From contig WYBR01000070.1 of NCBI GenBank assembly GCA_011525805.1, forward strand, positions 80,588 to 144,587: a DNA stretch of 64,000 nucleotides, written 5' to 3'. Under the pieces are notes generated by a model. The model saw only the letters and a program-made list of their open reading frames with translations. It ran no database searches and was not told the origin of the DNA. The translations under genes were made by a program, and so were the position numbers. The DNA comes from Vicinamibacteraceae bacterium. Its GTDB lineage: Bacteria > Planctomycetota > Phycisphaerae > Phycisphaerales > UBA5793. This document shows positions 27,174 through 64,000 of this stretch, piece by piece. Numbering within the stretch: the stretch's first letter is position 1; the number at the start of each line of letters is the position of its first letter.

Positions 27174-27183
27174 GGAGGCCGGC

Positions 27184-33692: not shown

Positions 33693-33716
33693 CTCCACAC
33701 TCACGAAGAGCCCCGC

Positions 33717-33768
33717 GCGGCTCCCGATAATCCGGGAGCCGCCATTCGTTTTGGCGGCCGACCGCCAA
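33717..33768 (+). terminator. Tandem hairpins downstream of flagellin 1 (candidate intrinsic terminator)
   Basis: GCGGCTCCCG-ATAATC-CGGGAGCCGC (10-bp perfect stem, 33717-33742) is followed by CATTCGTTTTGG. A second hairpin, TTGGCGG-CCGA-CCGCCAA, follows. Confidence 0.5.
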
Positions 33769-33989
33769 GGGCGCAGGATTCGGAAAGCGCAAGGAAAACG
33801 ATGTTCCGGATCAATGGACTTAACCCGGTTGCCATAGCGGACGATAGCAGTGCGTGGCCGATCTGGGTGGATGCCCGCAGTGGGCGCAAGACGGCTGACG
33901 CATCTGACCGGCTTCGAAGGAGCGAGGTCGATTAGAGGCCAACAAGCAAACGCCCCGAGAAGGGCACACTTCCAGTCACGGAGGATGGC

Positions 33990-49400: not shown

Positions 49401-50227
49401 AGGTCGGCGAAGAGTTCCGCCATCTCCTGCGGACTCTTGACGTAGACATCTTTCGGATAGCGCAGCCGGTTCGCCTCCGTCTTGCCCTTGCTCATCGAGA
49501 TGCAGCAGAGCGTGTCGTGGGCGTCGTAGTCTTGAGCGCGCATGAAGTGGGCGTCGTTGTCGCACACCAGCGGCAGATCGAGGAGGCGCGCCAGGCGAAC
49601 GAGGTGCGGATTGATCGCCTCCTGCTCCGGCACGCCGTTGCGCTGCACTTCGACGTAGAAGCGCGGCTCGCCCTTTTCATTGCGGCCGAAGGTCTCGGCG
49701 TGCCACTTCGCCTCCTCCACCGCTGCATCCCAGTGCGACGTCGTCTCGGGGTTCTGGACGAACCGGAGGAGGTGATGCGCGAGGCTCGAACCGAGGTGCC
49801 CGTTTATCGCGATCAGTCCCTCGCACCACTGCGCCAGCGTGCTCTTGTCCATGCGCGGCTTGAAGTAAAAGCCGTTGCGGTACGAGTCGCTGGTGAGTTT
49901 GAGGATGTTCCGCCAGCCCCGGTCATTCTCGGCGAGGAGGACGAGGTGAAAGCCCCCATCCGCCACGCCGGTGTACTGCCGGTCGCCGCGGTGGCCGGGG
50001 GCGACATACGCCTCGATGCCGAGGATCGGCTTGACGCCCGCCTCGCGCGCCAGCGCGTAGAACTCGACGGCCCCGAAGACGTTGCCGTGGTCCGTCATCG
50101 CCACCGCATCCATGCCGAGGGCCCTGACGTGCTGCATCAGCGCAGGGATGCGATTGCCCCCGTCGAGCAGGCTGTACTCGGTGTGGAGGTGGAGGTGGAC
50201 GAATCGGGGCTGGGTCTGTTCGGTCAT
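46421..50227 (-). CDS. dnaE: DNA polymerase III alpha subunit
   Basis: PHP domain FVHLHLHTEYSLLDG, polymerase core (...GRPGPMD..., FNKSHSTGYA), OB-fold and C-terminal tail are present. About 1268 aa if the ATG at 50227 (MTEQTQPRFVHLH) is used. Alternative starts lie at 50236 and 50281. Confidence 0.95.
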   Translation of the reverse strand: MTEQTQPRFVHLHLHTEYSLLDGGNRIPALMQHVRALGMDAVAMTDHGNVFGAVEFYALAREAGVKPILGIEAYVAPGHRGDRQYTGVADGGFHLVLLAENDRGWRNILKLTSDSYRNGFYFKPRMDKSTLAQWCEGLIAINGHLGSSLAHHLLRFVQNPETTSHWDAAVEEAKWHAETFGRNEKGEPRFYVEVQRNGVPEQEAINPHLVRLARLLDLPLVCDNDAHFMRAQDYDAHDTLCCISMSKGKTEANRLRYPKDVYVKSPQEMAELFADLPAAIENTIHIAQRCNVELPAGQNHAPVVKPVIPADRLEYNGGDRTKWYTEFCARYDLEPFDATRDQETPGELKQRCDRALRELSEAGLIWRYGADGVTEEIRARLDRELRILADKSISAYFLIVWDFVNWARQRGIPANARGSGVGTMVGYVLGLSNACPVRYGLLFERFTDPDRSEYPDIDIDICQDGRAAVIEYVRHKYGHVAQIITFGTLKARAAIKDVGRVFGLTPGETQRLANMVPEGLNVSIDDALEKEPDLRKEYDSREEIRTLIDTARALEGQVRHAGVHAAGVVIATQPLDNIIPLCRPTGAKAGEGEALTQWDGPTVEKFGLLKMDFLGLRTLSIIERARQLIRESLGEEAIRAALGVDDPSRDPLDLERLEYDDPRVFELFARGDTAGVFQFESGGMRKLLMEMKPDRLEDLIAANALYRPGPMDLIPHYNRRKHGQEEVPTVHPIVDRFTAETYGVMVYQEQVMQICHELGGIPLRAAYTLIKAISKKKEKVINEQRPVFIEGAARQGLDRRKAEDLFDLILKFAGYGFNKSHSTGYAIVAYQTAYLKTYFPNQYMAAVLTYESQAQKVSDWIAYLEDCRRALFPDGHAGIDVKPPDINLSAADFSVVFDPDEPRDHNHGHVRFGLRALKGAGDKAISAVVEERRRGGAFRSLFDFCERVPLSHVNKATIEALIKAGAFDSVHGMAQRAAMVEAIDAAVRAGQSLAADRASGQGSLFGLGEAVPAEEKNAAETPLPRTAPWDVQQALMNEKEVLGFFVSSHPLERYRAQIETFGSATTLEAAELDHDKPVVIGGMLTRVRPLLVRNGRSAGQKMAMITIEDLHGQIDGVLFADTFAECGEALTDHAMIFIVGQVDKSRGAASIKIDRVIPMNRAASELAGSIEIHLDEGEQAEATLALLNGELQRQARLNGSGGRPVPVRLHLYADRRHVILEPSRLRVAASESLLGFLRETIGEGACTVTAGGVPEPAPRERRWAAAPS

Positions 50228-50308
50228 TGTCAGCATCGTAGGCGGGGTGGTGGGAAGACGAACGCCGCCGCGGCGACCCACCAGATATGGGAGCGGGGAC
50301 CAGACTTG

Positions 50309-50339
50309 ATACTATGACTGGAGTTGATTAGTCTGTCAA
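50309..50339 (-). promoter_or_regulatory. Candidate sigma-70 promoter upstream of dnaE
   Basis: The minus strand reads TTGACA (50339-50334), a 17-nt spacer, then CATAGT (50316-50311), with the overlapping TAGTAT. The site is locally AT-rich and about 80 nt upstream of the dnaE start. Confidence 0.35.
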
Positions 50340-50489
50340 GGTGCGAACAGGTTGTCCACACCCTTCCCACGGCCGGGGCACGGCAAAGCGCTTCGCGCCA
50401 GCGAAGCGCACGAGCCGCGCCTGTGAGGAAGCGGTGCTCGCCGAACACCAGCGCGGCGCCGCCCCGGCAGCGCGATCGCGCTGTCATCG

Positions 50490-50625
50490 CCTCCCTCCCC
50501 CGGCTCTGCGGGGAGGGCTGGGGTGGGGGTGCTTCGCCGACACGTTCGTGGCGCACTCGTCGAATGCCTCACATCATACCGTCGCCCCCACCCCTTCCCC
50601 TCCCCCGCAAAGCCGGGGGAGGGGC
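50490..50625. repeat. Inverted pair of G/C-tract palindromic elements
   Basis: Copy 1 (50490-50531) is CCTCCCTCCCCCGGCTCTGCGGGGAGGGCTGGGGTGGGGGTG. Copy 2 (50584-50625), read on the other strand, is GCCCCTCCCCCGGCTTTGCGGGGGAGGGGAAGGGGTGGGGGC. Each has an internal CCCTCCCC...GGGGAGGG hairpin. Confidence 0.7.
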
Positions 50626-50715
50626 ATGCAAACTCACGCTTTCGCGAATCGTGATGGCCCTGACAACCCTGCGAATCGCGACAATCCGCCGCGCGGCAAT
50701 CCCTATGATCCATCG

Positions 50716-51009
50716 ATGCGAGTCGAGTTCCGAACGTTGAACGCCCAGCGCCTGCGGCAGGTCCGCGAGCGCATCGCCGCCCAACCCAACTGGGTCGTCC
50801 GGGCGGCGGCGCTGACCTTCGCGATCATCGTCCTTCTCCCAGTGGTCCTGCTCGTGGCCGTCGCGTTCGTCCTGGCCGCGCTGGTGCTGCTCGCACTGGG
50901 GCTGGTCAATCGCGTGGCCGGTCTGTTCGCGGGCCGGGCGGACGGTCTGTGGCGCGGCCGCGACCCGCAGGGCCGGCGCAACGTCAAAGTCCTGCCGCGC
51001 GAGGGGTGA
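50716..51009 (+). CDS. Small membrane protein (hypothetical)
   Basis: The ATG at 50716 lies inside track ORF 50341-51009. It encodes MRVEFRTLNAQRLRQVRERI... followed by a long hydrophobic stretch (AAALTFAIIVLLPVVLLVAVAFVLAALVLLALGLV). The upstream part of the track ORF crosses repeat elements and is rejected. Confidence 0.4.
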   Translation: MRVEFRTLNAQRLRQVRERIAAQPNWVVRAAALTFAIIVLLPVVLLVAVAFVLAALVLLALGLVNRVAGLFAGRADGLWRGRDPQGRRNVKVLPREG

Positions 51010-51038
51010 GGCGCCTTCGGGCTTCCGCCTCCTCACAT

Positions 51039-52406
51039 TCAGCGCCTCAGAAGCACCGCCTGGCCGGTGGTGAGTCGGATCGGCCGCACACCGCTGCCGG
51101 CGGCGAACTCATCCACCGCCTGCCGCGCGCCCGGGCACGTCAGAAACCCGTCATCATCGATGATGATGATCCCGCCGGGAGTGAGGCGAGGGTAGAAGAA
51201 CGCGAGCGCAGCGCGCGTCGGTTCGTAGAGATCCACATCGACGTGGACGAAAGCGAAGCGCGCCTCGCACGCCGCCTCGAAGCACGCAGGGATCCAGCCT
51301 TGATGAAACGCCAGGTCGCTCCAGCGCGCCAGGGCGGCCCGCACATCTTCAATTCCCCATCTCATGTCGCCCGGCCGCCATGGTCTCACTCCCGGCTCGG
51401 GGCGGTCGGCGGGCGTCGGCGTCGAGAGGCCCGCGAAGGAGTCGAAGAGGTGGTGGGCGTAGGCGGCGTGGCGCGGCAGCATCTCGGCGTAGCGGCGGAT
51501 GATCCACGAGCCGAGGCCGCGGTAGACGCCGCACTCGGCCGTGTCGCCGTCGAGCCGGCCCAGCGAGAGCAGGCATTCCTTGATCGTGTAGTAGCGGTCG
51601 CGCGGCCCGGGGCCGCAGAGCGCTTCGCCCTCGGCGCAGATGCGGTTGAACTCCTCCTCGCGCGGCCAGTAGAGCAGATCGTCGCGCAACTTCGCCGCGC
51701 CGCGCGCCGCCTCGGGCTGGTGCGTGTCGATGGGAGTCGTGATGATCGAGACCTCTTCACGCTTGCGCGCCGCGAAGAGAAGCAGCGTGTATTCGCGCAG
51801 CGAGTCCGTCTGGAAGGGCGCTTCGAGGCAGCCGATCGCTTCGATCTCACCAAGGCGCAGCGAGCCGCTGCGGGGCAGGCGGGCCAGCCAGCCTCCATCG
51901 ATCTCGAAGCCGTTGGCGCGATAGAACTGGTCGAGCACGCGGGGCTGCAGGGAGTAGAAGCCGTGGTTCTCCCAGCCGGCGACGGGTGAGACATGCAGGA
52001 CGGTCCCGCCGGTTCGGAGCATCGCGACGATGCCGCGAAGGGCCGCGGGAATGTCGAAAATGTGCTCAATCGTTCCGCCGTCGATAATCAGATCGAAGCG
52101 GCCGCGCCACGGCTGCGGCGGAGGCTGCGAGAGGTCGTGGAGGATCGAGGCGCCTTCGCCGCCGAACAGATCGAGCGCGTGATACTCCCGAAAGCCCAGG
52201 AGAGAGAAGAAGCGATCCGCGGCAACGCCGGATCCCGGCGCGAGCGCCTGGATCGGCGCGGCGACGGGCCGCCCCTCGAGCAGGTCGCGGACCTCCGACT
52301 CTGTGGCGCCGATGTCCTGCACGCCCAGCGTGAGCACCGACCTCCCCGGCGCGCGGGCACGCTGCCGCTCGATGAGCCAGCGGACGATCGGCAGCGCCAG
52401 GCCCAT
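51039..52406 (-). CDS. Two-domain methyltransferase: N-terminal class I SAM-MTase-like domain plus C-terminal TylF/MycF-type O-methyltransferase domain
   Basis: The N-terminal half has VLTLGVQDIG...ASILHDL...FDLIIDGGTIEHIFD...GGTVLHVSP. The C-terminal half has DTAECGVYRGLGSWII...LFDSFAGL...FAFVHVDVDLYEPTRAALAFFYPRLTPGGIIIIDDDGF, the macrocin-O-methyltransferase family pattern. Confidence 0.7.
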   Translation of the reverse strand: MGLALPIVRWLIERQRARAPGRSVLTLGVQDIGATESEVRDLLEGRPVAAPIQALAPGSGVAADRFFSLLGFREYHALDLFGGEGASILHDLSQPPPQPWRGRFDLIIDGGTIEHIFDIPAALRGIVAMLRTGGTVLHVSPVAGWENHGFYSLQPRVLDQFYRANGFEIDGGWLARLPRSGSLRLGEIEAIGCLEAPFQTDSLREYTLLLFAARKREEVSIITTPIDTHQPEAARGAAKLRDDLLYWPREEEFNRICAEGEALCGPGPRDRYYTIKECLLSLGRLDGDTAECGVYRGLGSWIIRRYAEMLPRHAAYAHHLFDSFAGLSTPTPADRPEPGVRPWRPGDMRWGIEDVRAALARWSDLAFHQGWIPACFEAACEARFAFVHVDVDLYEPTRAALAFFYPRLTPGGIIIIDDDGFLTCPGARQAVDEFAAGSGVRPIRLTTGQAVLLRR

Positions 52407-52442
52407 CAGCGACTCCCCTCCATCACGCGCGAATGTCCTCGT

Positions 52443-53975
52443 TCAGGCGGTGCGGGGGCACTCATGCGCCGCTTTGCTCCACCGAGAGGGCGGGTCATAG
52501 ATCTGCTTGAAGGGAAGGTCATCGCGGTAGAAGCCCAGTGACGCAACGCGCCACCGTCGCAGCAACTGATCGGCCGGAGTGAAGTGCCGCGCCTTGGGTG
52601 CGATGCCCACTCCCACATGGTACTTGCCGTCGCACAGGAACAGCCTCGGGAACTCGACGCGGAAGACCTGCCGGCCGCGCCGGAGGTTGAGACGCTGCGG
52701 CGAGGGTCGCCCCGTCTCGTTGAGTTGTGTGAGGTTCGTCGAAGTGAGCACGTGAATGTCCGCCTCGTTGAAGATCTGCACGCCGATGGCGACGTTGTCC
52801 TTGCGCACGCTGCTGTCCACGGTGATTTCGACCGTCACGGGCTCGCCGGTGTGGAAGCGGTCTCGCGGCTCGCCCGTGGCGTCCAGCACGCGCACCGAGG
52901 CGAGGCGGACGAGATTGAGATGCAGGATCGGCGGGCAGCGGTCTTCGGGATCGTCAAGCAGCGCCTGCACCTCCGGCGACAGCGGCGGCACCGAAGGATC
53001 ATCCTCATCAACGGGCGGCGCGCCGCGAGCCGCGGCGTCCTCGTCGCGGATCGCCCCCGAATCACCCAACGCCCCCGCCGCCCTCGCCCCAGCCACCCCC
53101 GCGCCGCGCCCCTTCGTCGTCTTCGCAAACTCCGCGAGCAGTTCCTTCTCGTACATCTGCGTAATCTCACGGCTCGGGCCGTCGGCCGCGAGTTCGCCTC
53201 GCCGCAGGTAGAGCGAGCGCGAGCAGAGCGTCTCGATGAAGAACATGCTGTGCGAGACGACCAGCGCCGTCGCCCCGCCGGTGCACAGGTCAAGGATGTG
53301 GTTCGTACACTTCTGCTGAAAGGCGAGATCGCCCGTCGCCAGGGCTTCATCGACGATGAGAATGTCCGGTCGGCGGCAAAAGGTGACGGCGAAAGTAAGG
53401 CGAGACTTCATCCCGCTGGAATACGTGCGAAACGGCTGGTCGATGACGTGCCCCAGGCCGGAAAAGTCGATGATCCAGTCGATCGACTCTTCAATCTCGG
53501 CCTTGGTGTAACCGAGGCAGTAACCGCCCATGAAGATGTTCTCGCGGCCGGTGTACTCCTCGTGGAAGCCGGTCCCGAGTTGGAGAATGGCGCGGAGGTT
53601 GCCGGCGATGCGGAACGAGCCTTGAGTGTGGTCGAGCGTGCCGGCGAGGATGCGCAGGAGCGTGCTCTTGCCCGCGCCGTTGGCGCCGACGACGCCGACG
53701 ATCTCCCCGCGCTTCACCGTGAACGACACGTCGCGCAACGCCCAGTGCGGCTTGTAGAGCGGGCGGCGGACGATCAGTTCCTTGAGAATCTGCGAAGGGC
53801 TGGAGTAGATCTTGTAGAGTTTGGAGAGGCCGCTCACGGCAATCGCGGCGCGAGGCTCGGGGCTTGAGGACTGAGAAGCAGCCTGCGGCGGGAGCCGCAG
53901 GTTGACGGCCGAAGCCCCCGTCGCGGACGCGGCGACTTCAACGGGTTGGCGCGATGGAGTGAGCACTTCCGTCAT
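52443..53975 (-). CDS. wzt: Wzt/TagH-type polysaccharide-export ABC transporter ATP-binding protein with a C-terminal beta-sandwich (Wzt_C-like) domain
   Basis: Walker A GANGAGKST, signature YSSGMKSRLTFAV and Walker B ILIVDEALATGD are present. After an Ala/Gly/Asp-rich linker, the C-terminal 160 aa or so (VRLASVRVLDATGEPRDRFHTGEPVTVEITV...LCDGKYHVGVGI) fit the carbohydrate-binding domain pattern of Wzt proteins. Confidence 0.85.
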   Translation of the reverse strand: MTEVLTPSRQPVEVAASATGASAVNLRLPPQAASQSSSPEPRAAIAVSGLSKLYKIYSSPSQILKELIVRRPLYKPHWALRDVSFTVKRGEIVGVVGANGAGKSTLLRILAGTLDHTQGSFRIAGNLRAILQLGTGFHEEYTGRENIFMGGYCLGYTKAEIEESIDWIIDFSGLGHVIDQPFRTYSSGMKSRLTFAVTFCRRPDILIVDEALATGDLAFQQKCTNHILDLCTGGATALVVSHSMFFIETLCSRSLYLRRGELAADGPSREITQMYEKELLAEFAKTTKGRGAGVAGARAAGALGDSGAIRDEDAAARGAPPVDEDDPSVPPLSPEVQALLDDPEDRCPPILHLNLVRLASVRVLDATGEPRDRFHTGEPVTVEITVDSSVRKDNVAIGVQIFNEADIHVLTSTNLTQLNETGRPSPQRLNLRRGRQVFRVEFPRLFLCDGKYHVGVGIAPKARHFTPADQLLRRWRVASLGFYRDDLPFKQIYDPPSRWSKAAHECPRTA

Positions 53976-53998
53976 GATCGGCAGCGCGCCGGGCGCGG

Positions 53999-56900
53999 CT
54001 ACGCTCCTCCCACCAATCGTCTCACGAACGATCCGATCCCGCGGCGCCGCTCGAAGGACTCGGTCGGGGCGGGCTGCGCGGTGCGGCGCACGAAAATGCG
54101 ACTCGAAAGCACGAGCAACTGCTCATCGCTCATCGCCGCGAAGCGGGCCGAGAGCAGAGGCCGGACCGCCGCCAGTTGCTCCCGCGTCCCCAGCAGGTTC
54201 TCATCCACGCGATCGATCGAGAACCCGGCGCGGCGGAAGTCCTCCACGAGTTCGTGCGAGCGCACTCGGTTGCCGTTCTCGTTGCGGCTGCGCAGGAAGA
54301 TGCGGCGATACTCCTCGTCGTCGTAACGGAGGAAGTCGTAGGGGCGGTCGAAGTTCTGGTGGTCGCGGAAATCGACCTGGTGAACGCCCAGGCCGCCGCC
54401 CCTTGTGAGACGCGCCAGTTCGCACGCGGTCAGGTACGTGTCGCCGACGTGTTCGAGCACGGCGTTGGAGACGATGACGTCAAACGAGCTGTCCGGCAGG
54501 TCGCTCGGCGGCGCGGCGAGGTCGCAGGCGTGCTGGGCGATCGTCTCTCTGAGGTGCCGCCCCGCGGCGACGATCGCGGCCAGCCCGTCCCACTTCGCGC
54601 GCGGCAGGCGCCTGGCCGCCGCCGCCCTCAGGCCCGCGTAGAAGCGCGGATGATACGACGGATCCCACTTCGCGAGATACTTGTCGAGCACCGCGACGCG
54701 CGCGCCCAGCGCCTGGCAGATGAGCATGCTGCCGAAGTTGCGCCCGGGGCCGAGTTCGAGCACGCTCAGGCCCGTGAGATCGGGAATGTCGTCAAGCACG
54801 GTCACCTTGGCGAAGTCGGGCAGTTCGCCGGAAAAGCGGCCGAAGTGCCGGCCGATGCAGTAGGCGTAGTCGATCGCGTTGCGCAGGCAGTAGCCGACCT
54901 GGTCGTTGAGGACGTCGGTGAACTCGTCGCCGTCGGTGCCCGCCGCGGCTGCGGCGGCCTCATCCGCGCGCGGCTGGGCGAAGACGCGCGCGATGGCGTC
55001 GTCGGCGCCCGCCCCCTGCTCCGCGCCGCTTCGCCGGACGAAGAAGCGGGCGCTGACGATCATCAACTGCTCATCGCCCATCGCGGCAAAACGGTCGATG
55101 AGGTGCGCCCGGACTTCGGCGAGATGCTCGGGCGAAGCGAACATGTTGGGCTCGACGCTCTCGACGACGAACCCCGCCGCGGCGAAGTCCGACGCCAGTT
55201 CGTGCGGGCGCACCCGGTTGCCCTGGCTGTTGCGCGATGTGAGAAACGTCTGCGCCGCGCTCTCTTCCGGAATGGTGAGGAAGGTCAGCGGACGATCCTG
55301 CGCGCGGTGGTCTCGGAAGTCGACCTGGTGGACGCCGACGCCGCCGGGCCGCGTCAGCCGCGCGAGTTCACCCGCCATCGCGGCCGTGTCGCCGATGTGC
55401 TCAAGCACGGCGTTGGAGACGATCGCGTCGAAGGAGGCGTCGTCGAAGGAGCAGGGAGGCTCGGCGAGGTCGCCGGCGGCGGCGCGGACGATCGACTCAT
55501 CGTGCCGCGACGCCCCGATGATCCGGTCGAGGCCCGACCAGTCGGCGTAGGGAAAGTGCGACTCGCACTCGCGCTTGAGGGCGCGATAGAAGTGGGGGTG
55601 ATACTTCGCGTCCCACTGCGCGAGGTACTTGTCGAAGACGGCGACCTGGGCGCCGCAGGCGCGGCAGAGGAGCATCGTGCCGAAGTTCGGCCCGGGGCCG
55701 AGTTCGAGAATCGACAGGCCACGCAGGTCCGGCAGCACGCCGTAGCGCTTGGAGTAGTGATCGCTCGACCCCGGCATCGCGCCGCGCCCGAACTGCTGCG
55801 CCACTGCCGAGGCGTAGTACACGCCGTTGACGATCGCGTAGCGCACGTGCTCGTCGAGGGCGCCCTCGACGGCCCAGCGGTCGTCGGTCAGGTCGATGGC
55901 CGCCACCTTCTTGGCGATCGGCCCCTCGCCGAGGCGCTTGAGAAAGAAGCGGCCGCTCACCACCGCCAGTTGCGCATCGCTCAGCGCGGCGAACCGGGGC
56001 TGCAACCGCGGCCGGACCTCGGCGAGGTGCTCGGCCGGCGCCCAGATGTTGGCGTCAAAGCGCCTTATCTCGAAGCCGCTGCGCCGGAAATCCTCCCCCA
56101 TCGCCTCGTGGCGCACCCGGTTGCCGTTGCCGTTCATCATCTCGTCAAAGAGCCGCCGGTACGCCTCGTCGGGCATGGTGAGGAACTCGAGCGGGCGCGA
56201 AAAGTCTCGGTGGTCGCGGAAGTCGACCTGGTGGATGTTGATCCCGCCCGGCGCGGTCAGGCGCGCCATCTCCGCCGCCGTTTTGGGAACGTCGCCCACG
56301 TGCTCGAGCACCGCGTTGGAGACGATCACGTCAAACGACGCGTCGGCATAGCCGCTGGGCGGCTCGGCGAGGTCGGTCCGATCCTGCGCGATGATGTCGG
56401 GCAGGTGGTCGGCTGCATTGATGATGCGGTCGAGCGAAGACCAGTCGCGCCGCGGCCACTTCGCCCCCACCGCCTCGCGCAGGAAGCGGTAGAAGCGCGG
56501 GTGATAGACCTCGTCCCAGTCGGCCAGGTACTTGTCGAGCACGGCGACGCGCGCGCCGAAGGCGTGGAGGATCAGCGGCGTGCCGAAGTGCCGGCCGGGG
56601 CCGAGTTCGAGCAGGCGCAGCCCCGCCACTGAATGGACACTATCGGCCCTCGACGTTGAACGGTCTCCGCGTCCATTCAATGGCGGGGCGAGCGGCATCG
56701 CCTCATCGCTGCGCCGGCCCAGTTCGCCGCAGATGAGTTGCACGTACTCATCCGCCACGCGCACGGCATACTCGACATCTTCGCGCACCTGCGCATCGGT
56801 GATCGCGCGGAGGTAGAAGCGGCCGCTGATGGGACGCAACTGCTCATCGCGCATCGCGGCAAAGCGCGGCGCCAGCCGAGGCCGCAGCGACGCCAGATAG

Positions 56901-57658
56901 CCCTCTTCGGCGAGCAGGTTCGGCCCGAAGTGCTCCACGCGGAATCCCACCTTGCGGAACAGGTCGCGCATCTCGTCGGGACGCAGCCGGTTGCCGCGCG
57001 TCCAGCGACCCGCCGCCCGCTCCTTCGCGACCGCTTCGTCCGCGAAGGTAAGGAACTCGAGTGGCCTGGCGTAGTCGCGCGAGTCACGGAAGTCGACCTG
57101 ATGGATGCCGAAGCCGTTGGGCCGGGTGATGCGGCACAACTCCGGCAGCAGGCTCGGCAGGTCCACCTGGTTGAGGATCGCGTTGCTCACGATGCAGTCG
57201 AACGAAGCGTCGTCGATCGCCAGCGGACCGGAGAGCGAGGCGATCGTGTGCAGCGCCAGCGCCGGCGATTCGTACGAACCGGCAGCGAGAACGTCATCGA
57301 TGAAGGACCAGTCGGCTTCGGGATACTCCTCCGCCCCGACGCGGGCCAGCGCGCGGAGACAGGCCGGGCTGCCCTCGCTCCACTTCACGAAGTGCGTATT
57401 GATCGCGGCGATCTCCGCGCCGAAGGCGCGGCAGACGAGCATCGGGCCGAAGCGATTCGGCGTGCCCAGTTCCGCGATGCGCAGCCCCGAGAGGTCGGGG
57501 AAAGGGTGCATCCGCCGCGCGAGGTGGTTCGCCATCGTCTTGGCGCACTCAAAGCCGTTGTCGATCGCGTATCGAACCTCCGCGAGCGCGGCGGGATCAA
57601 GGGGCGCATCGACGGCCAGAGCGTGGGTGGAAGCGTGGTGCATCGTCTGCGACATCAA
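53999..57658 (-). CDS. Tetra-modular SAM-dependent methyltransferase (four tandem paralogous MTase modules in one 1219-aa protein)
   Basis: Modules of about 290-315 aa repeat four times. The anchors are L(E/A)ELG(P/T)GxxFG (aa 63, 351, 652, 968), ASFD.IVSNA.L(E/N), HQVDFRD (aa 186, 476, 777, 1093), GNRxR..E....F...GF and RFAAM.DEQL...S.RFF..R. Confidence 0.8.
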   Translation of the reverse strand: MMSQTMHHASTHALAVDAPLDPAALAEVRYAIDNGFECAKTMANHLARRMHPFPDLSGLRIAELGTPNRFGPMLVCRAFGAEIAAINTHFVKWSEGSPACLRALARVGAEEYPEADWSFIDDVLAAGSYESPALALHTIASLSGPLAIDDASFDCIVSNAILNQVDLPSLLPELCRITRPNGFGIHQVDFRDSRDYARPLEFLTFADEAVAKERAAGRWTRGNRLRPDEMRDLFRKVGFRVEHFGPNLLAEEGYLASLRPRLAPRFAAMRDEQLRPISGRFYLRAITDAQVREDVEYAVRVADEYVQLICGELGRRSDEAMPLAPPLNGRGDRSTSRADSVHSVAGLRLLELGPGRHFGTPLILHAFGARVAVLDKYLADWDEVYHPRFYRFLREAVGAKWPRRDWSSLDRIINAADHLPDIIAQDRTDLAEPPSGYADASFDVIVSNAVLEHVGDVPKTAAEMARLTAPGGINIHQVDFRDHRDFSRPLEFLTMPDEAYRRLFDEMMNGNGNRVRHEAMGEDFRRSGFEIRRFDANIWAPAEHLAEVRPRLQPRFAALSDAQLAVVSGRFFLKRLGEGPIAKKVAAIDLTDDRWAVEGALDEHVRYAIVNGVYYASAVAQQFGRGAMPGSSDHYSKRYGVLPDLRGLSILELGPGPNFGTMLLCRACGAQVAVFDKYLAQWDAKYHPHFYRALKRECESHFPYADWSGLDRIIGASRHDESIVRAAAGDLAEPPCSFDDASFDAIVSNAVLEHIGDTAAMAGELARLTRPGGVGVHQVDFRDHRAQDRPLTFLTIPEESAAQTFLTSRNSQGNRVRPHELASDFAAAGFVVESVEPNMFASPEHLAEVRAHLIDRFAAMGDEQLMIVSARFFVRRSGAEQGAGADDAIARVFAQPRADEAAAAAAGTDGDEFTDVLNDQVGYCLRNAIDYAYCIGRHFGRFSGELPDFAKVTVLDDIPDLTGLSVLELGPGRNFGSMLICQALGARVAVLDKYLAKWDPSYHPRFYAGLRAAAARRLPRAKWDGLAAIVAAGRHLRETIAQHACDLAAPPSDLPDSSFDVIVSNAVLEHVGDTYLTACELARLTRGGGLGVHQVDFRDHQNFDRPYDFLRYDDEEYRRIFLRSRNENGNRVRSHELVEDFRRAGFSIDRVDENLLGTREQLAAVRPLLSARFAAMSDEQLLVLSSRIFVRRTAQPAPTESFERRRGIGSFVRRLVGGA

Positions 57659-57670
57659 GGTCTCCAGCGG

Positions 57671-59707
57671 TCAGGTGCGCACGGGTTGGGCGGCGATGGT
57701 GTGGATCGCGGGCGGGCCGTCGTCGCTCGCGGCCGGCGCTGCCTCGGCGCTTGGCGCGCGGCTGAGGGTCCGGGCGGGCGTTTCGATCCGCGCACCGCCG
57801 CCGCGCAGCGCCGTTTCGTAGACGCCGCAGGTCAGGTCCACCATCCGGTCGAGGTTGAAGCGATCATCGACGTACGCCTGCGCCGCGCGGCCGAAGCGCT
57901 CGCGCAGCCCGGAGTCCTGCAGGAGTTTCTGGAGGCTGATGACCAGCCCGGCCACGTCATCGACGCCGCAGACAAAGCCAGTCTCGCCGTGGGCGACGGC
58001 GTCGGGCGTGCCGCCGGCGTCGGTCGCGACCACGGGGATGCCGACGTGCTGGGCCTCGAGCGCGACGTTGGGACAGCCCTCGTAGCGGCTCGTGAGCAGC
58101 AGAACGTCAGCGGCGCTCATGATCTCGACGACGTTGTCCACGCGCCCCAGCAGGGCGATGTTCCGCGCCAGGCCACGCCGCGCGATGATGGCGCGGACGT
58201 CGGCCTCGAGCGGGCCGCTCCCCGCGACCGCGACGCGCAGGCCCGGCAGCCGTTCGCGAAGCAGGGCGATGACCTTGAGCATCAGTTCCGGCTGCTTCTC
58301 CTCATCGAGACGGTTGACGACCGCGACGACCGGCGCCTCGGGCGGCAGGCCCAGCCGCCGCCGCGCCGCGAGGCGCTGTGCCGGCGTCGGCCGGTCAAAG
58401 TGCTCGCGGAACAGGCCGTTGAACACGATGTGAAAGCGCGACTCGTCCAGCCCGACGTACTCGGCGTAACTCGCCGCGCCGCGATGCGAGTTGGCCATCC
58501 AGTGAATGCGCCGGCTCGGCGCCGCGACGCGGTACCAGTCCACGAAGGGCGAGTAAAAGCGCGGAAAGTGCGTCGGGTTGTAGTTGCGCGTGCTCAGGAT
58601 CACGCTGGGCACGCCCGCCGCGATCCCCGCCAGGCCCGCGATCACATTCGGATGATCGAGCCATGCGTGCAGCACGTCGGGCCGGTGCGCGGCGAGTTCG
58701 AGCGCGAGGTTGGCGACGTAGGAGCGAATCGCGTCCGGGGCCGCGGCGATGAGGTCCCACCGGACGCGCTCCAGCGCCGCGGCATCGACGCGCAGGCCGC
58801 TCCCGGCGCGCCGGGCGTCAACGCCCGCCCGGCTCAGCAGCGGCAGGTAGTGCCCATGCTGGCCGACGAGATCGTGCTGCGTGCGCACCAGGCACTCATG
58901 GCCGCGCTGCACCAGGCCCAGCGCGGTGTTGCACAATTGCCGCTCCGCCCCGCCGCTGTAGAGGCAACCGGTGTATTGAATGATGCGCAGAGGCCGCTCC
59001 GGAAGCGCCGCCGCCGGCTTGAACGAAGCGTTGTCGCGCTCGATGAACTGCCTCCACGCCGACTCGGCGTCGCCGCCGCGCTTCGACGCGATCGGATGCA
59101 CGATCACTTCGCCCTCGGGCAAGGCGGGCGCCGGCTCGGCGCGGCGCAGCCAGCGGCCCAGGCCCGCGGCGGCTTGCTCGTGGTCGATGAGCAGGCCGGG
59201 GAAAAGGCGGCGAAGCAGCGGCTTGATGCGCCGGCGCGCCAGCAGGTCGGCGAGCACCTCGGCCACGTGTACGCGCACCCAGCCGCGATCGTCGAGAAGC
59301 CACAGGTCCGTCACCCCGGCGCGGCGGAGCCACATCATCGCCTTGATGGAGAGATTGGCTCGCGACGTCGGAACGACCGCCGTCAACTCACCCGGCGGCA
59401 GCGGCGCCAGGCGCGTCAGCGACGGCAGCGGGCCGGAGACGTCCAGTCGCCACAGCGGCGCGTGGCTGCCGATCGGCCGCGCCCCGCACGCCGCCACCTG
59501 CGCCAGCACGAAGGCGCTGAAGAGATCGAGCCAGGGGCCGGCCGCCAGCGTGCCGGAATGCACCGCCACGCCGCCTTCGTCGTGCCACTGGCGCACCGCC
59601 AGCGCCAGCGCATCGAGGTCGGCCGCGCCGGCCATGCCGGCGGGGGACGGAACAGAGGCATCGGCGCCGCGGCCTTCAGGGCCGGCGATCGAGGGCGGAA
59701 GCGTCAC
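57671..59707 (-). CDS. GT4-family glycosyltransferase with an uncharacterised N-terminal extension of about 270 aa
   Basis: The C-terminal two-thirds has RIIQYTGCLYSGGAERQ...(GT-B N domain) and LLTSRYEGCPNVALEAQHVGIPVVATDAGGTPDAVAHGETGF (the EX7E-type GT4 motif). The GTG at 59707 overlaps the upstream stop (GTGA). An alternative ATG is at 59635. Confidence 0.75.
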   Translation of the reverse strand: MTLPPSIAGPEGRGADASVPSPAGMAGAADLDALALAVRQWHDEGGVAVHSGTLAAGPWLDLFSAFVLAQVAACGARPIGSHAPLWRLDVSGPLPSLTRLAPLPPGELTAVVPTSRANLSIKAMMWLRRAGVTDLWLLDDRGWVRVHVAEVLADLLARRRIKPLLRRLFPGLLIDHEQAAAGLGRWLRRAEPAPALPEGEVIVHPIASKRGGDAESAWRQFIERDNASFKPAAALPERPLRIIQYTGCLYSGGAERQLCNTALGLVQRGHECLVRTQHDLVGQHGHYLPLLSRAGVDARRAGSGLRVDAAALERVRWDLIAAAPDAIRSYVANLALELAAHRPDVLHAWLDHPNVIAGLAGIAAGVPSVILSTRNYNPTHFPRFYSPFVDWYRVAAPSRRIHWMANSHRGAASYAEYVGLDESRFHIVFNGLFREHFDRPTPAQRLAARRRLGLPPEAPVVAVVNRLDEEKQPELMLKVIALLRERLPGLRVAVAGSGPLEADVRAIIARRGLARNIALLGRVDNVVEIMSAADVLLLTSRYEGCPNVALEAQHVGIPVVATDAGGTPDAVAHGETGFVCGVDDVAGLVISLQKLLQDSGLRERFGRAAQAYVDDRFNLDRMVDLTCGVYETALRGGGARIETPARTLSRAPSAEAAPAASDDGPPAIHTIAAQPVRT

Positions 59708-61983
59708 GAGGCGGGACTCCCGTTGCGGTGGGGACTCACGGCCGGTCGGTCCAGGCCATCCTCCAGATCGTAGACCTTTCCCTCGACCGTCAAACACCGG
59801 CGATCGACCTGTTCGAGCGACTGTTCCAGCAGCGACTCGATCCGTCGGAGAAGTTGGCGCCGGTCGTCGTCGAGGCGGGCCGAGAGGCGGCTGATCTGGG
59901 CCGTCAGTTCCGTGTGCATCTGCTCGCGGCGGCGCTGCTCGGCCTCGCGCTCAGCGAGGTGTTCGGCCGCAGTGGTTTCAAGGCGCAGGCGGAGGCGCTC
60001 GTTTTCCGCGCTCAGCCCGGCCGCCCGCGCTTCCGCGGCAGCGAGGGCGGCGCGGCCTTCGGCGTCCTGCACTCGCAGCGATTCGAACCGGGCGGCCGCC
60101 TCGCGCAGCGCCGCTTCCTGTCGCGCCGCCTGCCCGCGCGCCGCTTCGAGATCGCGCGTCAGGTGCTCCAGGCGCTCCGCCAGGCGCTGCTCGCCGGACT
60201 GCCGCTCGGCGAGCGCCTGCTGCGCGGCCCGGAGTTCGCCGGCCGTCTCGCTTCGCTGCCGCTGCGCCTCGTTGAACACGTTGGCGTGGTGGTTGATCTC
60301 CTTGAGCCAGTTGGCCGCCTCGCGCTCGCGCTGGGCTCGGGCGGCCGCGAGTTCCGCGGCGATCGCCTCGACGGCCGCCTGCGTCTGGTCGAAGCGCTGC
60401 TGCAGCGCCGCGACCTGCTCGTCGGTCTTCACCCGGCCGCGCCACTGCTCCGTCTCGCGCTTCGCCGCTTCCAGACCCGCGTTCACCTCGTGCAACTGAC
60501 CCTCGAGGGCGTTGGCGCGGCTCCACCATTCGAATCGCTCCTCGCGCACGCGGCGCTGCAGCGCCGTTTCGTCGCGGCGAAGTTCGAGAATGCGATCGGA
60601 CTGGCTGGTATGGAGGCGAAGTTCCGACAGCAGCGCCGCGGCTTTCCTCGCTCGCAAGCGACCCTTGCCCCTCGCGCCGGCCTTGGCGCACACCGCCATG
60701 ATGACCTGCGGCCCCGCCGCCTCGACGGACCACGGCCGTTGAACCTCGAAACGGCCTCCTCCCGGCGCGCTTGAAGCCTCCTCCTCGAAAACGAGCGAGC
60801 CCGTAACGTCCGCCTGCCGCAGCCAGCGAATCGAATCGAAGCGATCGAGCCACTGCCCAAGTTCCTCGCGCGACGGGATGTGGAGGTGGAACGCGTTGCG
60901 GTGCTGGTTGATCCGGTCCCACGACGTCTCGAAATCTCGATCCGGCACGGAGATCAGCAGCAACCCGCCGGGCGAGAGCAGGCGATCAAACTCCGCGATC
61001 GCCTCGCGCTGGCCGCTGAGATGCTCGAGCGCTTCGAGGCAGACGATGAGATCGAAGGCGTCGTCATCGAAGGGGAGCGGTGTTTCGTTGAGATCCCACT
61101 GCACGAACTCCGCCCGTTCATCGTCACCGAGGCGCTCGCGGCCGAGCCTGATCGCCTCGGGCGATATGTCCAAATTGACGACGTGCTTGGCCCCCGCCTT
61201 GAGATACTCCTCCGCCCCGAGCCCCGCCCACCCGCCCGCGTCGAGCACGCGGCGGCCCTTCGCCAGCGCGGCGGCAATGTCCAGCCGCGCCCGGCAATGG
61301 GCCATGATCGTCGCATCGTCGAGCACCGGGTGGTCCGACATCGGCGCCGAAAGGCGCACGAGACTCAACCCCGCCAGCGCCGCTGCGGCAGCGGAATTGT
61401 CCGGCGGGCGCACGCCGAATCCCACGGCGACGGCGGCTTGTTCGATCCTCCGCAGCGCCGCCTCAACATCCGCATCGCTCTCGCGCGGCACGATCTCGAT
61501 CGACGAACTCCACTGCGTGCGCCCGTGGATCAGCCGGAGCATCGCCTCGGGGTCGCGGCCGAGGCGCGCGAGGCCGTCGAAGATGACGATCTCGACGGGC
61601 CCTTCGATCTGATCGGAGAGACCCTCGTCGGTCCCGTGGAGATACGCGAAGCCCCAGCGGCGGTGGTAGTTGTCGTGCTGGAGGCCGTCGAGGGGGTGGG
61701 TGAGGAGGCGCGGCTCGCGCTGAACGATGGCGTCGCGCAGCGCGGGCATCAGGGCGTCGTCGCGCGGCCGGACCCACGGCCGCTCATCGGGGCAGCACAC
61801 CTGCACCTGAGAGCCGGCGCAGGCAAACCACAGGCCCAGCGCGAGGTCGGCCGGCTCATCCTGGATGATGGTGAGGCGCTGCCACAGCGACCGCCCGCAG
61901 CCGCCCGGCCAGCGAGCAATGATCCCCTCCGCTCGACCGATGATGTTGCGGGCCGCTGCGCCGCTCTCCGGGCCAGCAGGCAT
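59704..61983 (-). CDS. Methyltransferase with an N-terminal unknown domain and a C-terminal coiled coil of about 280 aa (WbdD-like chain-terminator/ruler architecture)
   Basis: Class I MTase motifs are RVLDAGGWAGLGAEEY...VVNLDIS...DAFDLIVCLEALEHL...LLSPGGLLLISVP (aa about 235-350). From about aa 450 to 730 the sequence is continuous Ala/Arg/Glu/Gln/Leu-rich and heptad-like (ALQRRVREE...LEAAKRETEQW...LAERLEHLTRDLEAARGQAARQEAALREAAARFESL...). Confidence 0.75.
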   Translation of the reverse strand: MPAGPESGAAARNIIGRAEGIIARWPGGCGRSLWQRLTIIQDEPADLALGLWFACAGSQVQVCCPDERPWVRPRDDALMPALRDAIVQREPRLLTHPLDGLQHDNYHRRWGFAYLHGTDEGLSDQIEGPVEIVIFDGLARLGRDPEAMLRLIHGRTQWSSSIEIVPRESDADVEAALRRIEQAAVAVGFGVRPPDNSAAAAALAGLSLVRLSAPMSDHPVLDDATIMAHCRARLDIAAALAKGRRVLDAGGWAGLGAEEYLKAGAKHVVNLDISPEAIRLGRERLGDDERAEFVQWDLNETPLPFDDDAFDLIVCLEALEHLSGQREAIAEFDRLLSPGGLLLISVPDRDFETSWDRINQHRNAFHLHIPSREELGQWLDRFDSIRWLRQADVTGSLVFEEEASSAPGGGRFEVQRPWSVEAAGPQVIMAVCAKAGARGKGRLRARKAAALLSELRLHTSQSDRILELRRDETALQRRVREERFEWWSRANALEGQLHEVNAGLEAAKRETEQWRGRVKTDEQVAALQQRFDQTQAAVEAIAAELAAARAQREREAANWLKEINHHANVFNEAQRQRSETAGELRAAQQALAERQSGEQRLAERLEHLTRDLEAARGQAARQEAALREAAARFESLRVQDAEGRAALAAAEARAAGLSAENERLRLRLETTAAEHLAEREAEQRRREQMHTELTAQISRLSARLDDDRRQLLRRIESLLEQSLEQVDRRCLTVEGKVYDLEDGLDRPAVSPHRNGSPAS

Positions 61984-62158
61984 ATGGGTTCCCTTGCGGT
62001 CTGCTCCGCTTTTCCCAGCCGAATCTAAGGATTCCGTCGCCGGCCAGTCAACACGAACCCGGCGAAAGTGGACATCCGCCGCCAGCGCGTCATGATGCTG
62101 GGAAAGGGGCCCTCGCCCCGGACCGCCCCGTGGACACGATCTGAGGAGGTTCCCTTCG

Positions 62159-64000
62159 ATGAAGGCGCCCCGTCCCCGCGATCGCCGGAACTTCGTCCTG
62201 GCCCGCGGCCCGGCGCTTCATCCGCGGCCGCGCTTCGAGGCGCTCGAGAAACGGGCGCTGCTCTCCGCCGCTGTTCTCGGCGGCGACCTGCGGCGATTCG
62301 AGTTCCACGACGCCGACGGCGATACGGTTCTCGTACGGCTCATCGGCCGCGGTACGGCCGAACTCACTCTCTCCAATGATGCGGCCGACTTCGCAGACCT
62401 TGAACGCGTCGAGTTGCGCGGCGTAGATGCGGGCACGACACTGCGCATCGACGTACTCCGCGACCACGAGGGAGACGAGGCAACGACCCTCGGCTCGCTC
62501 ACCGCCGATGGGGCGCTCAATCGACTCGATCTGCGCCGCGTCACGCTCATCGGCGCGGGCATCGACGTCAACGGCCCGCTCAATCGACTCGATCTCGCCG
62601 CAGTCCGCGGCGAACTCAGCGATCGCACGGCAATGAGCATCCGCGGCGACCTGGGCCTCGCGCGATTCCTTGGCGACGTCGTCGGGGCCGACGTGGCGAT
62701 CGCCGGCGCCGCCGGCGCCATCATCATCCGCTCGGGCAATCTCGCTTCGAGCGCGATCACCGCCGGCGGAGACCTCGGCCGCTGCATCACGCTTGATCGC
62801 GGCGGCCTGGCCGGTCTCATCCTCGACACCGAACTCGTCATCGGCGGCTCAATCGAAACATGGCGGACGCAGGGACTCTCAAACGTCTCGGGACGGATCG
62901 GCGGCGATCTCGCTCGCCTTGGTGTCACCGGCAACCGCACCGAGACTTTCGGCACAATCGATCGAACGCGCCTTGCCGTCGAAGGTGAACTGACGCACCT
63001 GCGCCTCGGACGCGACGTGCAGGCCGACTCGATCCTCGCGGCAGAGCGCGGCTTCGGACGCATCACCATCAAGGGCGGCGTCCGCGACTCGATGATCCTC
63101 GCGGGCGCGGCCCTCGATGCGGACCTGTCTCTCGACCATGCGACCTTCGCCGTCGCGCCCATCGGCAGCGGTCGCATTGGCGGCGACCTGCTCGACTCCA
63201 TCCTCGCCTCGGGAGGCGATCCCGGCGAAGACGGCCTCTTTCGCAACCACGAGATTCTCGAAGGCGGCTCCATCGGGCGACTGACCATCGGCGGCTACGT
63301 CGCCGGCGTCCACAGCGAGCATCCGAATCCCGGCGTTTACGCGGCGCAGATCGATCGCCTCAGCGTGCGCGGCTGGCGCCTCGACGGCAAGAGCGATGAC
63401 CTGCGCGCGGGGATTCTCGGCACGGCGGTGATCGATCCCCTGCCCGATGCCGCCGCAGCGCTGACCGAACTTGACGTGCGGCAGATTCTCGAACAGATGA
63501 TCGCCCGCGCGACGCAACTGGGCGTGAACGCAACGCTCGCCGTGACCGACCGCGAGGGCAACATCCTTGCCGCCGTGCGCATGACCGACGGCTCACTCGC
63601 GCCCGACCCCGGCACATCGACGATCACCGGCGGGGGCAGCGGCGGACTTGAAGGCGTGACCGTCGCCTCATCCATCACGGCCGTGACGAAAGCGGGCACC
63701 GCCGCGTTTCTCTCGACGACGGGCAATGCGTTCACGACGCGCACGGCCGGTCAGATCATCCAGCCCAACTTCCCGCCGGGCGTGCGCTTCCAGGATTCCG
63801 GGCCGCTCTTCGGCGTGCAGTTCTCCTCGCTGCCCACGAGCGACATCAACCGCCTGCCGCTGGGCTTGTCGGCCGATCCCGGCGGCGTGCCGCTCTACCG
63901 CAACGGGCAACTCCTCGGCGGCGCGGGCGTTGAACTCGACGGCACGTACACGTTTGACCCCAGCCCGATCGGCGGGCGGGCGACGCTCGAAGAGCGCATC
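62159..64000 (+). CDS. Secreted repeat protein with a C-terminal GlcG/DUF336 (haem-binding-like) domain; the 3' end lies outside the window
   Basis: GAGGAGG lies 9 nt upstream of the ATG at 62159. I translated 614 codons to the window edge and saw no stop. The N-terminus MKAPRPRDRRNF...RPRFEALEKRALLSAA has the LExRxLLSA-type motif. The middle has Gly/Leu/Asp-rich repeats (GRIGGDL..., GRLTIGG...). From about aa 455, LTELDVRQILEQMIARATQLGVNATLAVTDREGNILAAVRMTDG...GGVPLYRNGQLLGGAGV matches DUF336. It is absent from the ORF track because it has no stop in the window. Confidence 0.65.
   Translation, partial: MKAPRPRDRRNFVLARGPALHPRPRFEALEKRALLSAAVLGGDLRRFEFHDADGDTVLVRLIGRGTAELTLSNDAADFADLERVELRGVDAGTTLRIDVLRDHEGDEATTLGSLTADGALNRLDLRRVTLIGAGIDVNGPLNRLDLAAVRGELSDRTAMSIRGDLGLARFLGDVVGADVAIAGAAGAIIIRSGNLASSAITAGGDLGRCITLDRGGLAGLILDTELVIGGSIETWRTQGLSNVSGRIGGDLARLGVTGNRTETFGTIDRTRLAVEGELTHLRLGRDVQADSILAAERGFGRITIKGGVRDSMILAGAALDADLSLDHATFAVAPIGSGRIGGDLLDSILASGGDPGEDGLFRNHEILEGGSIGRLTIGGYVAGVHSEHPNPGVYAAQIDRLSVRGWRLDGKSDDLRAGILGTAVIDPLPDAAAALTELDVRQILEQMIARATQLGVNATLAVTDREGNILAAVRMTDGSLAPDPGTSTITGGGSGGLEGVTVASSITAVTKAGTAAFLSTTGNAFTTRTAGQIIQPNFPPGVRFQDSGPLFGVQFSSLPTSDINRLPLGLSADPGGVPLYRNGQLLGGAGVELDGTYTFDPSPIGGRATLEERI

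Follow-up and report, generated by a model that had tools for sequence, protein, structure and literature searches.

The closest described counterparts of the locus presented here are the ABC-transporter-dependent O-polysaccharide systems of Escherichia coli O9a and Klebsiella pneumoniae O3 (WbdD-WbdA-Wzm-Wzt), in which WbdA belongs to glycosyltransferase family 4 (GT4). In such systems a coiled coil marks the chain terminators, and a carbohydrate-binding module (CBM) on the ATPase Wzt accompanies terminated glycans (PMC11231755). The terminator, ruler and polymerase modules are spread over one or several proteins in many ways, as in the terminators of K. pneumoniae O4, O5, O12 and O7, the last of which (ORF6) combines methyltransferase (MT), kinase, CBM, coiled-coil and GT2 glycosyltransferase (GT) modules (PMC11231755). 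Here we describe five genes, g1 to g5, from a 64,000-nucleotide stretch of contig WYBR01000070.1 (hereafter the window) of a bacterium of the Phycisphaerae (Planctomycetota), and predict that they make up the cytoplasmic half (assembly, decoration and energising) of a glycan pathway that is ABC-transporter-dependent and specific to the Phycisphaerae, a reading to which we assign a probability of roughly 60%. To our knowledge, the surface glycans of the Planctomycetota are almost unstudied, and a literature search on this cluster or on Planctomycete Wzt/MT systems returned nothing specific.

All five genes lie on the minus strand between positions 51039 and 61983, where a reading of the DNA from its letters alone (the sequence-only reading) had placed them. 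In a window of ~68% GC, real genes are recognisable by a GC content at third codon positions (GC3) of 0.8-0.9, and g1 to g5 are coding-type by this measure (GC3 0.82-0.89); the same five genes, of 759, 678, 1218, 510 and 455 aa, respectively, were called independently on metagenome contigs of 100% identity. Their packing is operon-like: the g1 stop and the g2 start overlap in a GTGA (59704-59707), and the remaining intergenic gaps measure 12-15, 23 and 36 nt. Ka/Ks ratios for g1 to g5 are 0.16-0.25, including in comparison with the other genome that has the same split layout (see below), and all five genes are under purifying selection. Domains were called by Pfam and NCBIfam scans, AlphaFold2 (AF2) models were built for g1 and g2, and structural relatives were sought with Foldseek (top 50 matches). 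These domain scans and models bear out the three signature parts that the sequence-only reading had recognised, namely a GT4, a Wzt carrying a Wzt_C domain, and an N-terminal enzyme attached to a long coiled coil. Its broader proposal, a variant terminator/ruler system for a heavily methylated glycan, stands as far as the logic and the MT bias are concerned, both of which are conserved; the locus, however, is a fragment, g1 is not a WbdD homologue and g5 is a variable accessory.

The g1 product is terminator-like. It consists of an MT-fold N-terminal domain without a glycine-rich loop (aa 1-210), a class I MT (aa 225-435), a helical stretch of ~270 residues and a strongly conserved C-terminal segment of ~60 aa, whose coding end overlaps the start of the GT4 gene g2. 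The class I MT is canonical, with matches to Pfam Methyltransf_11/23/25 (aa 230-385) and the motif VLDAGGWAGLGA. The N-terminal domain has no Pfam assignment, and AF2 models it with a pLDDT of ~85 as a seven-stranded Rossmann/MT-type fold; because it lacks the glycine-rich loop, we infer that it is a pseudo-MT or a scaffold. The whole g1 model finds its best Foldseek matches in two-domain phosphoethanolamine N-methyltransferases (PMT), aligned over ~450 columns. Behind the class I MT, the predicted helices (aa 462-516 and 521-730 by AF2/DSSP), SMC-like NCBIfam matches (aa 458-742) and a hydrophobic periodicity that peaks at 3.5 residues agree with a coiled coil. The protein has the arrangement expected of a putative terminating enzyme on a coiled coil, with the MT at aa 225-435 followed by helices from 462 to 730. 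The spacer between the end of the MT and the C-terminal motif VDRRCLTVEGKVYDLED, which is conserved in the ortholog alignment, varies by insertions and deletions from 251 to 332 aa across orthologs while both of its ends are conserved, the pattern to be expected of a ruler whose length diversifies. Neither Pfam nor NCBIfam reports a kinase family in g1, and WbdD is absent both from its PDB sequence matches at E<=0.01 and from the top 50 Foldseek matches. Homology of g1 to WbdD was accordingly ruled out, as there is no kinase domain and only the generic class I fold in common; the likeness is functional, not homologous.

The adjoining g2 encodes the single GT of the set, with a Pfam Glycos_transf_1 match of 125.7 bits together with Glyco_transf_4. 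Its GT-B core (aa ~241-634) carries the EX7E motif (E543-E551), and polymerisation is the role predicted for this single GT4. In the AF2 model (pLDDT 85.8, pTM 0.83) the core superposes on the retaining GT4s BshA, HepE, MshA and PimB', with ManT (7qsg) at rank 50 of the Foldseek matches. The best NCBIfam model is TviE, whose cut-off of 733 bits is far above the 166 bits scored by g2, so that g2 is not assigned to that family. The N-terminal domain (aa 28-230) is separate, folded and kept in ~40 homologs; Foldseek gave no fold for it, as the list was filled by GT-B matches of ~400 columns. Some g2 homologs are fused to an MT, and one to a GDP-mannose 4,6-dehydratase.

The g4 product has the two features expected of a Wzt from a terminator-capped pathway, a Wzt-type ATPase and a C-terminal domain of the CBM type. 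Its nucleotide-binding domain matches the Aquifex Wzt 8dku at 1.7e-58 and NCBIfam TagH/Wzt at 2.5e-58, and the Walker A (GANGAGKST), signature (YSSGM) and Walker B (ILIVDE) motifs are intact. A Wzt_C domain is recorded on the Wzt of every relative; carbohydrate binding is predicted for it. The partner permease Wzm is absent from the window, as the sequence-only reading had stated, both by Pfam scans of the coding-type ORFs (open reading frames) and by tblastn with the cluster-specific Wzm of the relatives; tblastn of the relatives' Wzm, radical S-adenosylmethionine (radical-SAM) and AsnB proteins against the whole window found none of them. A hidden or frameshifted Wzm in the 757-nt gap at 50282-51038 was also considered, and six-frame ORFs show none. 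In a relative at 87% identity with the same split layout (L016), Wzm is found on a separate contig (L020), beside u457 (a gene of ~457 aa without assigned function) and a sulfotransferase gene; a displaced u457-Wzm pair of this kind is on record for assembly GCA_039794345.1.

The most unusual component is g3, a tandem array of four MT modules of ~290-330 aa. Up to four stretches are matched by Pfam Methyltransf_11/23, and the array is visible in the protein as well as in the DNA, where repeats of 70-78% identity are spaced at 948, 903 and 864-870 nt. The motif of modules 2 to 4 is LELGPGxxFG, with an acidic residue, Asp, closing beta2; module 1 instead has AELGTPxRFG and an Asn, an altered form that is kept in most orthologs, and it is as conserved as the other modules (70-85% identity). 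Compared with a 63%-identical ortholog, modules 2 to 4 are 61-73% identical to their positional counterparts and 47-55% identical to the paralogous modules; the array is therefore old, with its modules individually maintained. No solved relative of a module was found by phmmer, and a profile search gave only marginal matches around motif II. Among 1.84 billion representative proteins, the module profile recovers 284 clusters at E<=1e-30, most of them stand-alone proteins of ~290 aa whose source names offer nothing informative. Four modules of this family in one protein are seen only in this clade.

The last gene, g5, joins an atypical MT-like N-terminal domain (aa ~1-230, motif VLTLGVQDI) to a TylF-type domain, which scores 65.4 bits against the Pfam cut-off of 23, matches the sugar O-methyltransferases NovP, MycF and CalS11 among PDB sequences, and has metal-site motifs (HVDVDLYEPT and IIDDDG) that are conserved in orthologs, placing it in the TylF family. 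The MT-dominated make-up noted from the sequence alone is real and extreme, but the count of MT-fold domains is eight rather than seven, because g1 carries the extra N-terminal Rossmann/MT-fold domain; the others are the g1 MT, the four g3 modules, and the N-terminal and TylF domains of g5. Five of the eight look canonical. The canonical glycine-rich SAM loop is missing from the g1 N-terminal domain, g3 module 1 and the g5 N-terminal domain, and these three are probably non-catalytic.

Table 1. Positions of the five genes, their domains and the features that bound them in the window.
Feature	Position (nt)	Strand	Basis or remark
g1, terminator-like protein, 759 aa	59704..61983	-	Pfam, NCBIfam, AF2, Foldseek, ortholog alignment
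g1 coiled-coil segment, aa 462-730	59794..60600	-	AF2/DSSP helices, SMC-model matches, heptad periodicity
g2, GT4, 678 aa	57671..59707	-	Pfam, NCBIfam, AF2, Foldseek; start overlaps g1 stop (GTGA)
g3, four tandem MT modules, 1218/1219 aa	53999..57658	-	Module alignment, DNA repeats
g3 module 1	56771-57658	-	
g3 module 2	55904-56770	-	
g3 module 3	55001-55903	-	
g3 module 4	54002-55000	-	
g4, Wzt-type ABC ATPase, 510 aa	52443..53975	-	Pfam, NCBIfam, structure match, motifs
g4 nucleotide-binding domain, aa 46-280	53136-53840	-	ABC_tran
g4 Wzt_C carbohydrate-binding-type domain, aa 356-463	52587-52910	-	Pfam, 40.8 bits against cut-off 30.4
g5, MT-like N-terminal domain and TylF-type domain, 455 aa	51039..52406	-	Pfam, PDB sequence matches
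g5 TylF-type metal-dependent sugar O-methyltransferase domain, aa 277-455	51042-51578	-	Pfam TylF
Sigma-70-like promoter match, TTGACT-18-TAGATT	62022..62051	-	Upstream of g1; consensus scan, weak evidence
dnaE	46421-50281		Bounds the g5 side of the cluster
Divergent gene, 1302-aa HbpS-like protein	start ~62096	+	Bounds the g1 side of the cluster

Homologs of g1 and g3 are few and come from Phycisphaerae/Planctomycetota assemblies. In relatives at 50-70% identity, a cluster of 10-11 genes lies between trpE and dnaE, and the window holds its distal half. The full layout runs from trpE through a sulfotransferase-like gene (458 aa), u457 (~457 aa), Wzm, a radical-SAM/SPASM gene (503 aa), a small protein and an AsnB-type amidotransferase to g1, g2, g3, g4 and g5, followed by a small membrane ORF and dnaE. 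It is found at ~60-70% identity to the window in L007, L009, L018, L019 and L021 (UBA5793, KLAP200, PE_seawater30), of which L018, L019 and L021 end inside g3, and at 50% in L017, which has three modules in g3 and no g5. Closer relatives depart from it: in L015 (80%) and L016 (87%) a convergent Sulfotransfer_3 gene replaces g5, and in L016 the upstream half is replaced as in the window's own lineage (L011, 100%), where a divergent 1302-aa gene and a PssA-like operon take its place. This divergent operon (62096-64000 on the plus strand, L011:207-7606), which stands where the Wzm half sits in relatives, encodes the 1302-aa protein with three HbpS-like stretches, a 503-aa protein without assigned function, a PssA-like CDP-alcohol phosphatidyltransferase and a class IV aminotransferase.

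The order g1-g4 is kept in every related locus that reaches that far; g5, in contrast, is variable, with sulfotransferases in its place in L015, L016, L023 and L024, and is an exchangeable accessory. In all of these loci, the co-conservation that the sequence-only reading had put forward as a check holds for g1-g4. In the remote versions, whose g1 is 31-34% identical, the order is Wzm, radical-SAM, small protein, MT330, AsnB, g1, g2 and Wzt (L023, without g3, and L024, with a single 295-aa MT module), or g1, a gene of 735 aa at the place of g2, and a Wzt fusion (L025, a locus that begins at the radical-SAM gene, so that its upstream end falls short of any Wzm). The number of g3-type modules is accordingly 0, 1, 3 or 4 among relatives. 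Two of the remote loci join a decoration enzyme covalently to the exporter ATPase: in L024 (15647-18238) Wzt is fused to a C-terminal sulfotransferase (863 aa), and in L025 (10001-12490, P0011) a g3-type MT module lies N-terminal to Wzt (829 aa). Because Wzm sits upstream of g1 in relatives, its absence here is a rearrangement in the window's lineage and not a feature of the system. The locus is the split-off half of a larger conserved cluster, and the apparent lack of Wzm reflects this lineage-specific split. The full complement of Wzm, further GTs and initiation genes that was to expose an ordinary fragment is adjacent in relatives for Wzm only; none of the versions includes another GT, a gene for an initiating transferase, or genes for nucleotide sugars.

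The upstream genes of the relatives also raised the possibility of a RiPP (ribosomally synthesised and post-translationally modified peptide) or lasso-peptide cluster, given a radical-SAM gene, AsnB and a marginal transglutaminase match (E = 0.0037, one ortholog). We rejected it: a lasso-peptide cluster would have an Asn-synthase-like cyclase that lacks glutaminase function, together with a precursor peptide and a B protease, whereas this AsnB is a genuine glutamine amidotransferase, and GT4, Wzm and Wzt occur beside it. The AsnB protein begins with MCGIAG and scores 420 bits against a cut-off of 267 for TIGR01536, its closest model being the exopolysaccharide (EPS) amidotransferase TIGR03108. 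The small protein (130-155 aa) that follows the radical-SAM/SPASM gene has no family match; the N-terminal domain of the radical-SAM/SPASM protein is its homologue, and the two have the motif FSTSDNSDPRxNGRxY in common (L009:1569-3511, L007:1800-3775, L017:1672-3749). In L015 (2693-5568), six small ORFs of 105-350 aa without family matches lie between AsnB and g1.

The domain identities, motifs, gene packing, co-conservation, fusions and variable g1 spacer suggest a mechanism in which every catalytic role is predicted. The retaining-type GT4 g2 would extend a lipid-linked chain, probably a homopolymer, since g2 is the sole GT in all versions. The three canonical modules and one non-canonical module of g3 would O-methylate this chain, and the TylF-type sugar O-methyltransferase of g5 would add to the methyl decoration in the window's lineage. 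In g1, the coiled coil of ~270 residues would carry the active MT at its distal end, and the conserved C-terminus, coupled to g2 in translation, would probably dock to g2; only chains long enough to reach this MT would receive a terminating methyl cap. The Wzt_C domain of g4 could then recognise the modified terminus and license export through a Wzm permease, presumably encoded elsewhere in this genome because the ancestral cluster was split. That Wzm, g1, g2 and Wzt are still found together in the remote versions supports the glycan-export pathway proposed here. The scheme, which keeps to the published rules for such systems, is also supported by the low Ka/Ks ratios of all five genes and by the separate Wzm contig of the 87% relative.

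Several observations weigh against this proposal. No Wzm, initiating transferase or ligase occurs in the 64-kb window or in the 7.8 kb upstream of it on a longer identical contig, and the radical-SAM/SPASM and AsnB proteins that accompany the system in relatives are missing here. Lipid-linked O-polysaccharides are not usually made by a single GT and no adaptor GTs, SAM binding is in doubt for three of the eight MT-fold domains, and the class I MT fold is the only similarity detected between g1 and WbdD. The g1 coiled coil, moreover, is modelled as a monomer only, with a pLDDT of 55-72. Hints to the sugar are weak and divergent: the TviE model of g2, the AsnB-type amidotransferase of the relatives, a TviC-like epimerase (below) and the GDP-mannose 4,6-dehydratase fusion suggest a uronic acid or a 6-deoxyhexose, and we make no choice between them.

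Other arrangements of the same parts have to be considered. The protein g2 might transfer a single sugar, or a few, onto a lipid or metabolite, with the MT and sulfotransferase modules decorating the head group, Wzm/Wzt flipping the product and the coiled coil serving as a scaffold. One GT alone is present in all versions of the cluster, the closest solved GT4s (BshA, MshA and PimB') use small acceptors, as does PimA, a comparable case, and a large number of MT domains for a small number of hydroxyls would suit the exhaustive methylation of one residue; yet a coiled coil with a distal terminator and a CBM-bearing Wzt are marks of chain-length-controlled polymers (PMC11231755), the g1 spacer varies in length between conserved ends, and the best NCBIfam match of g2, albeit below its cut-off, is the homopolymer synthase TviE. 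We consider such a glycolipid or glycoside unlikely. Somewhat less likely again is a lipid-linked glycan destined for an S-layer protein, flagellin or another surface protein instead of lipid A. The S-layer glycans of Geobacillus, which are ABC-transporter-dependent and methyl-capped, provide the model: the same machinery would be needed, there is no ligase of any kind to tell the acceptors apart, and two flagellin genes and a TviC-like epimerase gene lie 15 kb away in the window. Against this, relatives have the cluster between trpE and dnaE, the flagellar genes are set apart from it by housekeeping genes, and there is no oligosaccharyltransferase nearby.

An intracellular polymethylated polysaccharide, made by one GT4 and MTs and kept in the cytoplasm like the mycobacterial methylmannose (MMP) or methylglucose (MGLP) polysaccharides, would also explain an MT-rich gene set with a single GT4, and the MMP cluster is likewise composed of one GT and MTs (PMC9883506). 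The ManT structure appears among the g2 matches, but at rank 50, and this similarity is generic for GT4; all versions encode a Wzt that bears a CBM-type domain, Wzm is adjacent where loci reach that far, and no MmpH-like hydrolase is encoded, which makes this explanation very improbable. Hardly credible, finally, is a decaying remnant in which g1 to g5 ceased to function once separated from Wzm, the radical-SAM protein and AsnB. Although the upstream half is lacking from the window and the 7.8 kb beyond it, all reading frames and catalytic motifs are intact, the Ka/Ks ratios are low also against the other split-layout genome, and an identical protein of the locus is present on 13 metagenome contigs. 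The best reading is that the cluster is a variant of the ABC-transporter-dependent, coiled-coil-terminated glycan pathway with a different parts list. A bolder version, which we regard as doubtful, is that it makes the first known exported polymethylated polysaccharide, a GT4 homopolymer on which the MT array writes a per-residue methyl pattern (sulfate in sister lineages) that the CBM reads as a licence for export. In that version the modules would be tethered to the exporter, as the MT::Wzt and Wzt::sulfotransferase fusions suggest, and modification and export would operate as one machine.

A flagellar connection was rejected as the main reading, given the intervening housekeeping genes and the synteny with trpE and dnaE. 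The flagellar cluster itself (21487-35459) contains flgF/G-like rod genes, flgA, flgH, flgI, flgN, flgK, an flgL-like gene and two paralogous flagellin genes (32120-33589 and 33990-35459) with 70-73% DNA identity over repeat blocks. Directly after the flagellins lies an SDR (short-chain dehydrogenase/reductase) epimerase gene (35605-36720) whose best NCBIfam model, at 180 bits and below cut-off, is TviC (UDP-GlcNAcA 4-epimerase); together with the TviE-like g2 it is a weak hint at uronic-acid chemistry or flagellin glycosylation. Further away, regions 1608-9593 and 13610-17551 encode proteins of the type IV pilus/type II secretion system (T2SS) kind (PilM, PilN, two T2SSE ATPases and T2SSF) and two large FG-GAP repeat proteins.

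On the g1 side of the cluster, the consensus promoter scan of the region gave three sites where 0.4 were expected. On the other side, the 757-nt gap before dnaE holds a conserved small membrane ORF (50626-51009) on the plus strand, opposite to the cluster and convergent with g5, with a single long hydrophobic segment. Every relative has an ortholog (96-127 aa) at the same place, with the cluster on one side and dnaE on the other, including those that lack g5 or carry another gene instead. Between dnaE and this ORF, two G/C-rich 40-nt arms (50493-50532 and 50584-50623), 75% complementary and 51 nt apart, form an inverted repeat that is possibly a repetitive extragenic palindromic (REP)-like element or a terminator. 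A second short repeat family occurs at 43380, 45008 and 45034, and an Rfam scan of the window matched no riboswitch or other RNA.

If the proposed pathway is correct, the coiled-coil terminator and CBM-Wzt logic worked out in enterobacteria is seen here in a distant phylum, built from distinct parts: a single GT4, a terminator composed of a pseudo-MT and an MT, a four-module MT, radical-SAM and amidotransferase partners, and modules for methyl or sulfate decoration, which are swapped or else joined to the transporter. The relatives would then constitute a natural series, with 0, 1, 3 or 4 MT modules and spacers of 251-332 residues, for decoration density, chain length and export gating. The cluster would also point to a heavily methylated, and therefore hydrophobic, envelope polymer in marine and soil Phycisphaerae, and it is a starting point for work on Planctomycete envelope glycans and on the coupling of modular decoration to export.

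Among known systems, the mycobacterial MMP cluster (ManT, MeT1, pMeT3 and MmpH) likewise combines a GT4 with dedicated sugar O-methyltransferases and yields a homopolymer methylated on each residue (PMC9883506). MMP is cytoplasmic, however, needs the hydrolase MmpH and has no ABC exporter or coiled-coil protein, whereas the present cluster has no hydrolase in any version, always has Wzt and mostly has an adjacent Wzm, and so does not belong to this class. The common polysaccharide antigen (CPA) locus of Pseudomonas aeruginosa contains Wzm/Wzt, the GT4s WbpX, WbpY and WbpZ, and the MTs PA5457 and PA5459; these MTs are single-domain proteins without coiled coils, in contrast to the coiled-coil-borne MT and four-module array described here, and CPA has several GTs instead of one. 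The C-terminal domain of g5 resembles TylF, NovP and MycF in passing the Pfam threshold, in its PDB matches and in its Asp-rich metal motifs, but known members of that family modify natural-product deoxysugars or nucleotide sugars, while the g5 domain shares its protein with another, atypical MT-like domain and belongs to a glycan-export cluster.

Closer in overall logic are the O9a and O3 systems. Their terminating MT, like the putative one of g1, is N-terminal on a protein with a long C-terminal coiled coil, and their initiation and ligation genes likewise lie outside the cluster (PMC11231755, PMC3482155); a GT4, here a predicted polymerase, and a Wzt with a C-terminal carbohydrate-binding-type domain are further shared features. 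The differences are that g1 has no kinase domain, that its MT is not detectably related to WbdD and is preceded by an extra MT-fold domain, that there is one GT domain only and no adaptor GTs, that no Wzm is linked to the locus in this genome, and that g3 and g5 add five further MT-fold domains. In WbdD, the C-terminal region binds the membrane and recruits the polymerase; g1 has a strongly conserved C-terminus that may dock to g2. In K. pneumoniae O7, O4, O5 and O12, the published caps are methyl, methyl-phosphate or Kdo (3-deoxy-D-manno-oct-2-ulosonic acid), added by one terminator enzyme, and none of these systems has a multi-module MT protein or swappable MT and sulfotransferase accessories fused to Wzt. 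With its GTGA overlap, the g1-g2 pair nevertheless fits the format in which terminator and polymerase modules are carried on separate polypeptides.

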